Of a DNA stretch of 64,000 nt, positions 49,085 to 54,420 are shown in pieces. The stretch lies in contig OZ242318.1 in the NCBI GenBank assembly GCA_965208105.1, positions 4,480,001 through 4,544,000 of the forward strand. The letters run 5' to 3'. This DNA comes from Candidatus Latescibacterota bacterium. GTDB lineage: Bacteria; Latescibacterota; UBA2968; UBA8231. Positions within the stretch are counted from its first letter, which is position 1, and each line of letters begins with the position of its first letter. The position numbers and the translations under genes are program-made. The notes beneath the pieces were generated by a model that was not told the DNA's origin, searched no databases, and was given only the letters and a program-made list of their open reading frames with translations.

Positions 49085-49101
49085 AAGTGAGGAGTAGAAA
49101 T

Positions 49102-50280
49102 ATGCTGGAGATCGAATCGACCCAGGCCTACATGCGGGAAACCGGTGTGGACGCCTGGCTGGTCTACGACTTTCGCGGCAGCAACCCGGTTCTGTGGCAG
49201 CTTGTCGGGGGCAGCAGGGCGACCACCCGGAGAAGCTTTCTGCTGCTGCCCGCGCGAGGCGAGGCGAGGATCATCGCCCACGCAATCGAGAAGGAGGTCT
49301 TCTCGGATCTGGAGGTGGAGGTCGAGTCCTACGCCGGACGGGGGGAGATGCTCGACAGGGTGCGCGAAGCCCTGCAGGGGTGTTCGCGGGTGGCCATGGA
49401 GTACTCTCCCAGGGGCGAGTTGCCCGTCCTTTCGTGGGTGGACGGGGGCACCCTGGAGCTGATCAGGTCCCTTGGAGTGGAGGTGGTTTCGTCGGCCCCG
49501 CTCTCCCAGGTGGCGCTGACCCTGTGGAGCGAGGCGTCCCTGGAGTCACACCTGGACGCGTGCCGCCAGGTGGGCGAGGTCAAGGACGCCGCCTTCGACT
49601 ATATCCGCCAGGGATTGCAGGGAGGATCGTCCCTGACCGAGTCCGACGTCCAGGAGTTCATCCTGAGAGAGTTCCGCCGCCGCAGGCTGGAAACGGATCA
49701 TCCGCCCATCGTCGGCACCAACGCCAACAGCGGCAATCCCCACTACGAGCCCGTAGAAGGGAGGTCGGCGCAGATCGCCCGGGGAGATTGGGTATTGATC
49801 GACCTGTGGGCGAGGCGTCCGGGCGAAGGGAATGTTTTCGGCGACATCACCTGGGTCGGCTACGCCGGCGCCGGGGTCCCGGAGACTCATCAGCGCATAT
49901 TCGACCTGGTCGCCGAGGCCCGCGACAAGGTGGTTGAGCGCTTGCGCCGGGATTGGGACGCGGGCAGGACGGCGCAGGGCTGGGAACTGGACCGGGTGGC
50001 GCGCGACCTCATCGAGGCGGCCGGCTACGGCGCCCGTTTCCTCCACCGCACCGGGCACAGTCTGGGACCGGGTCCGAAGGTACATGCCCTGGGGGTGAAC
50101 CTGGACGATCTCGAGACCCACGACACCCGCGAGATTCTGCCCCGGACGGGATTCTCGGTGGAGCCCGGAATCTACCTGGCCGAGTTCGGGGTGAGACTGG
50201 AGATCAACGTGTACGTGGATGGGCGCTCGGGGCCCACGGTCACCACTCCCGTTCAGGACGAAGTGGTCGAGCTCGTCTAG
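49102..50280 (+). CDS. M24 family Xaa-Pro aminopeptidase-like protein
   Basis: GNPHY, LIDLW, DITW, HRTGHSLG, SVEPGIY, GVRLE. Confidence 0.9.
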   Translation: MLEIESTQAYMRETGVDAWLVYDFRGSNPVLWQLVGGSRATTRRSFLLLPARGEARIIAHAIEKEVFSDLEVEVESYAGRGEMLDRVREALQGCSRVAMEYSPRGELPVLSWVDGGTLELIRSLGVEVVSSAPLSQVALTLWSEASLESHLDACRQVGEVKDAAFDYIRQGLQGGSSLTESDVQEFILREFRRRRLETDHPPIVGTNANSGNPHYEPVEGRSAQIARGDWVLIDLWARRPGEGNVFGDITWVGYAGAGVPETHQRIFDLVAEARDKVVERLRRDWDAGRTAQGWELDRVARDLIEAAGYGARFLHRTGHSLGPGPKVHALGVNLDDLETHDTREILPRTGFSVEPGIYLAEFGVRLEINVYVDGRSGPTVTTPVQDEVVELV

Positions 50281-50393
50281 ACCTTATGTATTGACGGAGA
50301 TATGAAAGACCTCCTCCGACTCGGTTGTCGGGGGTTATCTTTGGGAAAACGGAGTTCACCCAAAGACCTATCCCCAGCGAGAAGGAGGAGGCC

Positions 50394-51533
50394 ATGCGTA
50401 AATCTACGAAATTCGTCGCCTTGGACATACATAAAGATTCGATCACCGTCGCCCTGGCCGGTGAAGGCCGAAAAGGGCCAGACCTGTATGGAACGATACC
50501 GTCTACGGGCGCCGCGTTGTCCAAGCTGGCGGGCCAACTGGCCCGTGGTGGGACCTCGTTGCGGTTTTGCTACGAGGCCGGACCCTGCGGCTACGGCGTC
50601 TACCGTCAGCTCACAGCCCTGGGGCACGCCTGCACGGTGGTGGCGCCCTCGCTGATCCCGCGTCGGCCGGGCGACCGCATCAAGACCGACCGCCGCGATG
50701 CTGTGTCTCTGGTGCGGCTTTTCCAACACGGCGAGTTGACCCCCGTGTGGGTGCCCGACGAAGCGCAGGAGGCGATGCGCGATCTGGAGCGCTGCCGGGA
50801 AGACTTCAAGCACGCCGAGCGCCGCGTGCGCCAGCGGCTGAACAGCTTCTTGCAGCGCCACGGCCGGATCTACTCCGGGCGCAGTCGCTGGACCCAAGCC
50901 CACTTTCGCTGGCTGCAGACCCAGCGCTTCGATCATCCGGCCCAGCAGATCGTCTTTCAGGAATACGTGGACGCGGTACAGGAAGCCCAAGGTCGGATCC
51001 AGGGGTTGGACCAGGCCCTGCAGCAGGCGCTGGAGGGATGGTCTTTGGAAGGGGAGACGCGGGCTATGAGGGCGCTGCGCGGGGTAGACACGCTCACCGC
51101 GGTTACGACCCTGGCCGAGTTGGGGGACCTCACCCGCTTTGACTCGCCGCGCCAACTGATGGCCTTCGTCGGTCTGGTCCCCAGCGAGCATTCCAGCGGC
51201 TCCCGCCAAAAGCGAGGGGCGATCACCAAGGCGGGCAACGCCCACGTGCGGCGCGTGCTGGTGGAAGCCGCCTGGTGCTATCGCTTTCCCGCCCGCAAGA
51301 CGGCCGCCTTGCAACGACGCGCCGAACAGACCGCACCCCCCATACAGGCCATCGCCTGGAAGGCACAGAAACGCCTGTGTGGACGCTATCGACGGCTGAG
51401 TGGGCGAGGGATGCCGAAAAACAAAGTCTGCACCGCGATCGCGCGGGAGCTTTTGGGTTTCATCTGGGCCATCGCCTGGGAGCAGAAACGCCCCGGCCGC
51501 CTCGTGGCCAGGAGGCCTCGGATCGCCGCCTGA
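50394..51533 (+). CDS. IS110 family transposase (DEDD recombinase)
   Basis: LDIHKD, CYEAGP, IKTDRRDA, GLVPSEHSSG, AIAREL. Confidence 0.95.
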   Translation: MRKSTKFVALDIHKDSITVALAGEGRKGPDLYGTIPSTGAALSKLAGQLARGGTSLRFCYEAGPCGYGVYRQLTALGHACTVVAPSLIPRRPGDRIKTDRRDAVSLVRLFQHGELTPVWVPDEAQEAMRDLERCREDFKHAERRVRQRLNSFLQRHGRIYSGRSRWTQAHFRWLQTQRFDHPAQQIVFQEYVDAVQEAQGRIQGLDQALQQALEGWSLEGETRAMRALRGVDTLTAVTTLAELGDLTRFDSPRQLMAFVGLVPSEHSSGSRQKRGAITKAGNAHVRRVLVEAAWCYRFPARKTAALQRRAEQTAPPIQAIAWKAQKRLCGRYRRLSGRGMPKNKVCTAIARELLGFIWAIAWEQKRPGRLVARRPRIAA

Positions 51534-51604
51534 TAAGCTCATCGTCTCAGAAGCCGGCATAGGACCTTTGCTCATGTAAATCGAAACGGGACAGAAGGGA
51601 CCGG

Positions 51605-51735
51605 TCAGGAGAATCCTCGAAGACACTATGAGGCGCCTATCAGGCTGACCCTCGACTCTAGATTGAGGCCGCTCCGCGACGCACCCAGGACAGGCGGTAA
51701 CCAACCCGCGAATATCAGTCGGATCAACCGTCGCT
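51605..51735 (+). ncRNA. Putative bridge/seek RNA guide loops of the IS (transcript ends unknown)
   Basis: Two stem/internal-loop units containing GACACTA and TCTAG (match the target) and ATATCAG (matches the donor end). Confidence 0.7.
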
Positions 51736-52077
51736 ACAGCGTCCCTTCTGTTCCCGAACAAACTCATGCAAAGATAACACCCGAAACGACCACCCCGGAG
51801 GGGGTTGACAACCGTCAATACATATCAGTGTCCCGTCGCAGAAATATGTCGCCATTATTCCGCCGATCCATCCCGGCTCACGGCGTTGCCTTCACTCGCC
51901 GTACACCACTGGTACGACCCGCTCAGGCGCCTGGTGAGCCGGGCGCCTCGGCGGCCCAATTTCGTCAACCTATCTCTGCGACGGAACACTAGTTCCCCGA
52001 TGACTTTTTCATCGGGCTGCCAGGGCGCCATCCCATCGCAGCTGGCATGGCCACAGGCGCAGCGCAGCCGGGGTTGA

Positions 52078-54420
<2,343 letters not shown>

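Follow-up and report, generated by a model that had tools for sequence, protein, structure and literature searches.

An IS1111-group insertion sequence from a Latescibacterota bacterium with a predicted bridge RNA that matches its own target site

The window, a 64,000-nucleotide stretch of the genome of a Candidatus Latescibacterota bacterium (contig OZ242318.1, positions 4,480,001 to 4,544,000), contains a 1,548-base-pair insertion sequence (IS) that is, with a probability of about 0.87, an autonomous member of the IS1111 group of the IS110 family, the DEDD/Ser recombinase of which is guided to its target by the element's own bridge RNA or seekRNA. The anatomy of the element, its other genomic copies and the target consensus that they share, the catalytic residues of the recombinase, the covariation of guides with flanks and of paired RNA positions among relatives, and an insertion polymorphism are all directly observed. 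By analogy with IS621, ISEc11, and related elements, the RNA is probably produced, bound by the recombinase, and used to direct recombination through a circular intermediate. The element has all the testable features of the IS1111 group other than the typical protein length and, in part, the donor loop.

Copies of the element and their shared target

The segments that define the element and its insertion site are as follows.
50281-51828, plus strand: insertion sequence of 1,548 bp, with the right AG core copy (51827-51828) counted in; one of 12 full or near-full copies that are 88-100% identical and have unrelated left flanks
50277-50280, plus strand: CTAG, the left half of the target and a flank of the adjoining miniature inverted-repeat transposable element (MITE), probably its target duplication; AG at 50279-50280 is the left core copy
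51829-51988, plus strand: 160-bp MITE, the terminal repeat of which, TGTCCCGTCGCAGA(A/G)ATA, supplies the right half of the target; a second CTAG follows at 51989-51992
50285-50297, plus strand: left subterminal inverted repeat TATGTATTGACGG, separated from the left end by 4 nt; its motif ATG(T/G)ATTGAC is kept in relatives
51812-51824, plus strand: right subterminal inverted repeat CCGTCAATACATA, separated from the right end by 2 nt plus the core
50394-51533, plus strand: transposase/recombinase gene, 379 amino acids from the ATG at 50394, with domains PF01548 and PF02371

At the left junction GTCTAG (50275-50280) is followed from 50281 by ACCTT, the start of the left-end sequence ACCTTATG, and at the right junction TATCAG (51823-51828), which closes the right-end sequence CATATCAG, is followed by TGTC from 51829. 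Both junctions had been read in this way in an original prediction made from the sequence of the window, and inspection of positions 50100-52000 confirmed them; the end coordinate given there, 51840, lies 12 nt too far, since the real right junction falls between 51828 and 51829. AG is the only sequence common to the two junctions and is therefore the core dinucleotide. Its presence at both junctions in all genome copies and across relatives agrees with the predicted core, and the joined ends would read ATATC-AG-ACCTT, as had been proposed for the circle junction.

The 4.85-Mb source genome, a single contig, was searched for copies of the element and holds, besides the 12 full or near-full copies, one lone left-end and one lone right-end fragment. 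CTAG precedes all 13 left ends, and the sequence farther out is unrelated between copies. At ten of the 13 right ends the element is followed by TGTCCCGTCGC, which is the terminal repeat of the 160-bp MITE, with the MITE in either orientation; the remaining three lie outside any MITE and continue with TGTTGTG, TGGTCGC, and TGCCTGC. The pattern of CTAG before the element and TG after it holds for 13/13 left ends and 13/13 right ends, with no duplication larger than the core. Therefore, the target is CT-AG-TG(TC), where the MITE tip meets its CTAG flank. The predicted empty target GTCT-AG-TGTC is the correct state of the site before insertion of the IS; however, its TGTC represents the first four bases of the MITE, and only CTAG/TG (the slash marks the insertion point) is common to all copies, each of which occupies such a site.

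The MITE is present genome-wide in 82 paired copies and is usually flanked by CTAG; 30 of the copies have CTAG on both sides, and close variants such as TTAG and CTGG are found otherwise. Among its 164 ends, 61 are unoccupied and read CTAG/TGTC, and these paralogous ends agree with the proposed empty site. The orthologous position in the relative G004 reads GCCTAG and passes directly into intergenic DNA, with neither MITE nor IS; therefore, the MITE entered the CTAG first, and the IS then inserted between the CTAG and the MITE tip. Because the G004 site, which lacks the MITE, confirms the insertion only, the pre-insertion sequence was taken from the paralogous MITE ends. The IS adjoins either end of the MITE, in two internal orientations, which identifies the two as separate elements. 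A composite element of IS plus MITE was considered and ruled out, given three of 13 right ends without a MITE, 82 stand-alone MITEs, and both orientations beside the IS. A tblastn search (E 1e-5) combined with a scan for the RNA scaffold pattern found no IS110-family paralogs with other guides in the genome, only the 12 copies. A palindrome, CCCCGATGACTTTTTCATCGGG, lies at 51995-52016, and variants of it recur beside MITE/CTAG sites, including the flanks of several MITE copies; it may be a hairpin resembling a repetitive extragenic palindrome or a terminator, beside which the MITE lands.

The transposase matches PF01548 (DEDD_Tnp_IS110) with 49.4 bits against a cut-off of 29 (E 5.6e-13) and PF02371 (Transposase_20) with 80 bits against a cut-off of 21.3 (E 1.7e-22). 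A phmmer search of Protein Data Bank chains found ISCro4 (9t56, E 1.7e-8) and, in the C-terminal domain only, IS621 (8wt6, E 2.2e-5). Alignment to these two chains places the catalytic residues at D11, E61, D99, D102, and S268-G269; the active site of IS621 is formed by D11, E60, D102, D105, and S241 (Hiraizumi et al. 2024, PMC11208158). The motif GL-P----S(t)G is present as GLVPSEHSSG, and the gene is preceded by a sequence resembling a ribosome-binding site, GGAGGAGG, at 50384-50391. Subterminal repeats of 7-17 bp and a non-coding region that is longer downstream of the gene than upstream are features of the IS1111 group (PMC11187229; Durrant et al. 2024, PMC11208160). The repeats found here are perfect over 13 bp, and the non-coding ends measure 113 bp to the left of the transposase gene and 295 nt to its right. 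Together with the two Pfam domains, these properties bear out the earlier assignment to IS110/IS1111.

The predicted bridge RNA and the covariation of its guides with flanking DNA

The 3′ non-coding end of the element contains the following predicted RNA parts.
51588-51755, plus strand: predicted bridge RNA or long seekRNA, about 168 nt, from the minimum free energy (MFE) fold and RNAalifold, with basal stem GGGACAGAAGGGAC / GUCCCUUCUGUUCCC
51615-51668, plus strand: target-binding loop unit, in which an 8x8 internal loop separates outer stem CCUCGA/UUGAGG from inner stem UGAGG/CCUCG, with an apical hairpin
51621-51628, plus strand: 5′ strand of the target loop, AGACACUA; its GACACUA is complementary to TAGTGTC of the top strand (core and right flank) and is the equivalent of the right target guide (RTG) of IS621
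51655-51662, plus strand: 3′ strand of the target loop, ACUCUAGA; its (U)CUAG repeats the left flank and core of the top strand and is the equivalent of the left target guide (LTG) of IS621
51676-51734, plus strand: donor-binding loop unit with outer stem GCGACG/CGUCGC and apical stem GCGG/CCGC, from the MFE fold and RNAalifold

The four guide strings of the original prediction, GACACTA (51622-51628), TCTAG (51657-51661), ATATCAG (51712-51718), and AGGAC (51687-51691), were found at those positions, as were its stems CCTC/GAGG (twice), CGACG/CGTCG, and GCGG/CCGC. The MFE fold of the non-coding end has a long basal stem that joins 51588-51601 to 51741-51755, a GGAG/CUCC helix, and two internal-loop units, and in it the two target strings face each other across a single symmetric 8x8 internal loop, AGACACUA / ACUCUAGA. 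The segment complementary to the top strand lies 5′ of that complementary to the bottom strand. In shuffles of the non-coding end, a pair of target strings (a bottom-strand 7-mer over the core and, no more than 70 nt after it, a top-strand 5-mer that also spans the core) arose in 291 of 20,000 cases and the donor top-strand 7-mer over the core in 1,801 of 20,000. The matches seen in a single sequence are suggestive only, and the decisive support comes from the other copies and from relatives of the element.

In the proposed mechanism, the DEDD/Ser recombinase would be made together with the structured RNA of about 170 nt that is encoded directly 3′ of its gene, and the two internal-loop units of the RNA would serve the target and the donor, respectively. 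The target-loop pairings would overlap at the AG core, which would be the site of strand exchange. In the donor loop, AUAUCAG would base-pair to the bottom strand at the right end and core in the excised circle junction (ATATC-AG-ACCTT), and the short, imperfect AGGAC would face the left end. The expected outcome is orientation-specific insertion at CT-AG-TG(TC), which in the source genome would mainly be the junction of the MITE terminal repeat and CTAG.

A scan of 185,579 species genomes yielded 233 stretches that encode relatives of the transposase, and the best 80 of these 233, with 57-85% amino acid identity, were kept. Three loci that ended at contig ends and 21 that lacked both repeats by pattern (at most two mismatches to ATGTATTGAC) were dropped, which left 56 loci. 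The sources of the relatives include Gemmatimonadota, Latescibacterota, Gammaproteobacteria, Nitrospiraceae, Alphaproteobacteria, and Bryobacterales. Their ends are nearly constant, with (T/A)AG followed by ACAT(C)-ATGTATTGACC on the left and AATACAT-ATC-AG on the right, and their flanks differ. Forty-five distinct 3′ ends of relatives align together with that of the window to one scaffold, CCTCG-N6-CTA-TGAGG ... CCCTCG-A-N4-(T/A)AG-A ... GAGG, and variation in this scaffold is confined to the two loop strands. In each relative, N6 reverse-complements the initial six bases of the right flank, as in L042, L045, and L054, where AGGCTC, AGACTC, and AGCCTC stand beside gagcct, gagtct, and gaggct. 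N4 with the subsequent (T/A)AG repeats the left flank, for example CTTCTAG in L061, ACAAG in L076, and GTAAG in L083.

This agreement was counted in insertions with at least eight readable flank bases on each side and AG at the left junction. Nine insertions were dropped, as was L067, the right end of which had been misplaced; the set comprises 47 insertions with 34 distinct guide pairs, each pair being represented by one insertion. A register shift of one position in either direction was allowed on the 5′ strand for real and permuted pairs alike.
5′ strand against right flank (complementary): 164/204 matches observed; permuted mean 90 (standard deviation 6), maximum 113; 0/10,000 permutations reach the observed value
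3′ strand against left flank (equal): 106/170 matches observed; permuted mean 62 (standard deviation 4.7), maximum 80; 0/10,000 permutations reach the observed value
The figure of 0/10,000 is not a probability, because the permutation test ignores the shared ancestry of the relatives, which counts against the guide reading, though many different targets are involved. The assignment of the target guides is supported beyond chance, since both loop strands track their own flanks in 34 relatives with distinct guides. The element had also been called possibly reprogrammable, and natural reprogramming is indeed seen among the relatives; it is in this natural form only that the description holds.

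RNAalifold was applied to 41 of the 46 sequences; L041 and L055 were left out as near-duplicates, and L076, L079, and L101 because they are cut in the aligned range. The consensus has the same architecture, with 42 pairs, 25 of which display compensatory changes, among them pairs of the basal stem, of the two target-unit stems, and of the donor unit's outer stem. The sequence of the basal stem varies freely across the set while its pairing is kept, and one pair in the outer stem of the donor unit (columns 108/168) shows compensatory changes in 20 sequences. Within the source genome, guide variation is confined to the 3′ strand of the target loop, and the copy at 2089784 has guide CCUAG and site CCTAG.

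It would also be conceivable that the protein itself reads the terminal repeat of the MITE, that the structured 3′ end serves, for example, termination or mRNA stability, and that the target matches are coincidental. The matches in the single sequence are short (7 and 5 nt, reached in the 291 of 20,000 shuffles given above), and 10/13 insertions are at one repeat family. However, the loop strands follow different flanks in the 34 relatives to a degree that none of the 10,000 permutations attains, the three insertions outside any MITE still occupy CTAG/TG, and RNA guidance has been demonstrated in other members of the family. Recognition by protein alone is therefore extremely improbable, and guidance by the RNA is the preferred reading of the target side.

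Contigs assembled from other samples differ from the window at 51656 and 51657, which are variable positions of the 3′ strand, and at the stem base 51663; the rest of the loop unit is kept. Four copies, at 3999611, 4530281, 1051098, and 183433, make up the insertions with T at position -5 (TCTAG), and each of them also has G at -6 (GTCTAG), a combination found in only 2/20 of the TCTAG-flanked hits in a scan of MITE ends. Pairing does not explain the G at -6, because the guide has C there. The copy at 3999611 (minus strand) is flanked at 3999280-3999610 and 4001319-4001650 by the remnant of a diverged IS relative that had another guide (ACTGCA-CTA; AAGTTAG). A MITE inserted precisely into the TTAG on the 3′ strand of the remnant's own target loop, and the present IS inserted afterwards at the end of that MITE. 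The guide of an IS is a landing site for the MITE too, because the guide copies the target.

The donor loop and observations that count against the guide model

Several observations weigh against the reading of the element as an RNA-guided member of the IS1111 group. The recombinase, with 379 residues, exceeds the 330-350 amino acids of IS1111-type transposases (PMC11187229), a typical but non-defining length. The fold energy of the RNA is not significant, with z of -1.5 for the whole non-coding end and +0.1 for the 151-nt core, and therefore the structure rests on covariation. An Rfam scan of 49800-52300 with E values up to 10 returned no bridge-RNA family and three chance-level matches, so the RNA model rests on the alignment of relatives. 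The element of the window matches its own flanks at 4/6 variable guide positions of the 5′ strand and 3/5 of the 3′ strand, in addition to the core, and two older copies have guide CAUAG yet reside at CCTAG, a mismatch. A scan for sigma-70-like promoters detected 0 sites in the linear element. Contigs from RNA libraries, described below, cannot show strand, ends, or level and could represent DNA carry-over. The donor loop adds two further points of this kind, which concern its candidate guides.
51712-51718, plus strand: left donor guide AUAUCAG, which repeats the final 5 nt of the right end and the core (7/7)
51687-51691, plus strand: candidate right donor guide AGGAC, a weak match to AGGTC of the donor bottom strand, positionally homologous to (A/T)GTC in relatives

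AUAUCAG changes jointly with the right end in L043 (ATAACAG) and in L052, L061, and L106 (ATACCAG), which are two independent events; it is off by one base from the right end in L066, L082, and L088. At the position of AGGAC, the relatives have (A/T)GTC, which matches their left end ACAT; their RNA reads (A/T)GUCAG where the donor bottom strand is TGTCTG, and that of the clade of the window reads GGACAG against GGTCTG. The right donor guide mismatches the A of the core in every family member and, in the clade of the window, also the first base of the left end. The mismatch is not disqualifying, because the right donor guide of IS621 pairs discontinuously (Durrant et al. 2024, PMC11208160). Of the two donor guides put forward in the original prediction, ATATCAG is supported by its complete match and by its changes together with the right end in two lineages, but AGGAC is weak and mismatched, and its role as a candidate right donor guide is unproven.

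These properties bear on an alternative in which the target-loop half alone guides as a seekRNA of about 70-100 nt, the unit at 51676-51734 is a scaffold or processing signal, and the protein reads the ends of the element through the subterminal repeats. For ISEc11, an 82-nt seekRNA with target matches alone sufficed and was more efficient than the long form (PMC11187229), and because of this the alternative retains some weight, although it is unlikely. The family-wide mismatch of the weak right donor guide and the disagreement of the left donor guide with the right end in three relatives would fit it, and the donor ends and the second unit are so conserved that informative changes are few. 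By contrast, AUAUCAG is exactly the right end plus core, it follows the right end in the two independent lineages, the second unit repeats the plan of stem, internal loop, and stem of the target unit, and donor-complementary loops have been described in IS1111 elements (Durrant et al. 2024, PMC11208160). The preferred reading remains a two-loop RNA that would address both target and donor.

An additional contact might involve the left end.
50313-50334 (conserved stretch 50313-50336), plus strand: hairpin in the left end and 5′ untranslated region of the transposase; relatives form one at the equivalent position, some 33-42 nt from the left end
The loop of this hairpin is kept in relatives as CGTGG(G/A)TTA and is complementary to AACCC(A/G)CG, the apical part of the donor-loop unit. 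Wherever an aligned relative has A in the RNA, its hairpin loop carries T (13/13), which gives full Watson-Crick pairing, and never C. The hairpin loop in the clade of the window, CGGGGGTT, has one mismatch to the apical part of the donor unit. Judged from these sequences, a third, undescribed contact of the IS1111 subfamily between the left-end hairpin loop and the apex of the donor unit is conceivable but quite improbable. If it existed, the bridge RNA could pair with the transposase mRNA and couple the abundance of the guide to translation of the transposase; another option would be pairing of the RNA with left-end DNA as a further check of the donor.

Recent movement, relation to known systems, and genomic surroundings

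The element is intact and recently mobile. The 379-residue frame is intact in 10/12 copies; of the other two, one has lost 120 bp by deletion and the second has a broken frame. The proteins encoded by five copies are identical, and among seven elements the identity over 1,548 bp is at least 99.6%. Runs from 10 studies, covering sponge, coral-reef, and marine metagenomes, contain sequence words of the element, and contigs (not reads) of four public runs were aligned to it. A 1,769-nt contig of the DNA run X5 contains the element with 10 differences, preceded by 188 nt of flank. The last 30 letters of this flank plus TCTAG are identical to the flank of a MITE end at 3736048 (minus strand) that is unoccupied in the source genome. 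The contig is an insertion polymorphism from an independent sample at the predicted target TCTAG/TGTG. In three runs, metatranscriptome contigs that are 90-99% alike to the element cover 28/30 of its bins, including 51597-51758 in run X17. The latter contig was considered as a separate small RNA (depth 18 against 8.4 for its neighbour) and rejected, as contig depth is not usable.

Little probability attaches to the idea that the element is a fossil with old, immobile copies. In its favour are the damage to 2/12 copies and the lack of a detected promoter in the linear element. Circle-junction or excision joints are also missing from those listed in the contigs of the four runs, which would rarely show one, so that absence is not implied; the three joints listed are internal or in the MITE, each from one low-depth contig. 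Against a fossil stand the five identical proteins and seven nearly identical elements, the 10/12 intact frames, and the insertion of an independent sample at a site that is empty in the source genome.

A promoter may form at the circle junction from the right end of the mobile element.
51805-51810, plus strand: TTGACA in the right end, kept in relatives, a possible -35 box of a circle-junction promoter
By eye, this TTGACA would need a 19-nt spacer to a poor -10 box in the clade of the window; in relatives the spacer would be 17 nt, to CATCAT. A second, 10-bp inverted repeat, GTTATCTTTG at 50334-50343 and CAAAGATAAC at 51769-51778, joins the 5′ untranslated region of the transposase with the region 3′ of the bridge RNA, and it is the best inverted repeat in the relatives L031 and L033 as well.

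The element is a clean example of a known mechanism and does not represent a new one; landing in another mobile element is known as well. IS4321 and IS5075 reportedly insert into the terminal repeats of the Tn21 family. IS1111 of Coxiella burnetii, which inserts into QMITE2 (PMC5896051), is likewise an IS1111-group element that lands in a repeated mobile element; there the site is a palindrome inside the MITE, whereas here it is the junction of the MITE terminal repeat and CTAG, in another MITE family and another host phylum.

With ISEc11, ISPa11, and ISKpn4 (Siddiquee et al. 2024, PMC11187229), the element shares a DEDD transposase with a long 3′ non-coding end, subterminal repeats, and natural redirection among relatives through the guide segments only. 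As in IS1111-type seekRNAs (PMC11187229), two target-strand segments overlap at the insertion point, the one complementary to the top strand being 5′. It differs from the three elements in protein length, 379 against about 340 amino acids, and in its target CTAG/TGTC; the comparison is by description, not by sequence, and the RNA of the present element is predicted. IS621 (PMC11208160; PMC11208158) has the same kind of two-loop RNA with left and right target and donor guides that each include the 2-nt core, the same composite active site of DEDD plus Ser, and a similarly imperfect pairing of the right donor guide. By contrast, the present RNA is 3′ of the gene (5′ in IS621), the order of guides within the loops is reversed, the core is AG instead of CT, the subterminal repeats are long, and the protein is only distantly related. 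ISPpu9 and ISPpu10 of Pseudomonas putida (PMC12288879) resemble the element in having AG on both sides, which is needed there for circle formation, and a repeated extragenic element as target; their bridge RNA precedes the transposase mRNA, and additional small RNAs, Asr9 and Ssr9, are described for them.

The value of the element is that of a clean natural data set, not of novelty. It is a well-resolved natural example for the IS1111 branch of the bridge RNA or seekRNA recombinases, which is less characterised than the IS621 branch. The set offers a compact conserved scaffold with a symmetric 8x8 target loop and some 34 guide pairs reprogrammed in nature, each with its cognate site, together with an abundant known landing site and recent movement in an uncultured sponge- or reef-associated bacterium. 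It could help to define the guide rules of IS1111-type enzymes. For annotation, it accounts for the 1.55-kb repeat of the genome and for the association of this repeat with a 160-bp MITE.

A search of the literature for IS110-family elements named in Latescibacterota found none. The origin in a poorly sampled lineage, suggested in the original prediction, fits the host, a member of the Latescibacterota, but not the subfamily of the element, which has 233 detected relatives across several phyla. Host genes next to the element agree with this placement: the peptidase and MetG are 85% and 82% identical, respectively, to those of G004, a Candidatus Latescibacterota relative, and MetG is 47% identical to that of a Gemmatimonadota metagenome-assembled genome.
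49087-50280, plus strand: peptidase M24 gene, an open reading frame with Pfam domain PF00557 and an ortholog in G004
The TAG stop of the peptidase gene (50278-50280) overlaps the CTAG of the insertion site, and its coding sequence is unaltered by the insertion. In a contig from the RNA library of run X15, the sequence at 50280 continues from the CTAG of the peptidase stop into DNA that is neither IS nor MITE; it represents an allele without either insertion, as in G004.

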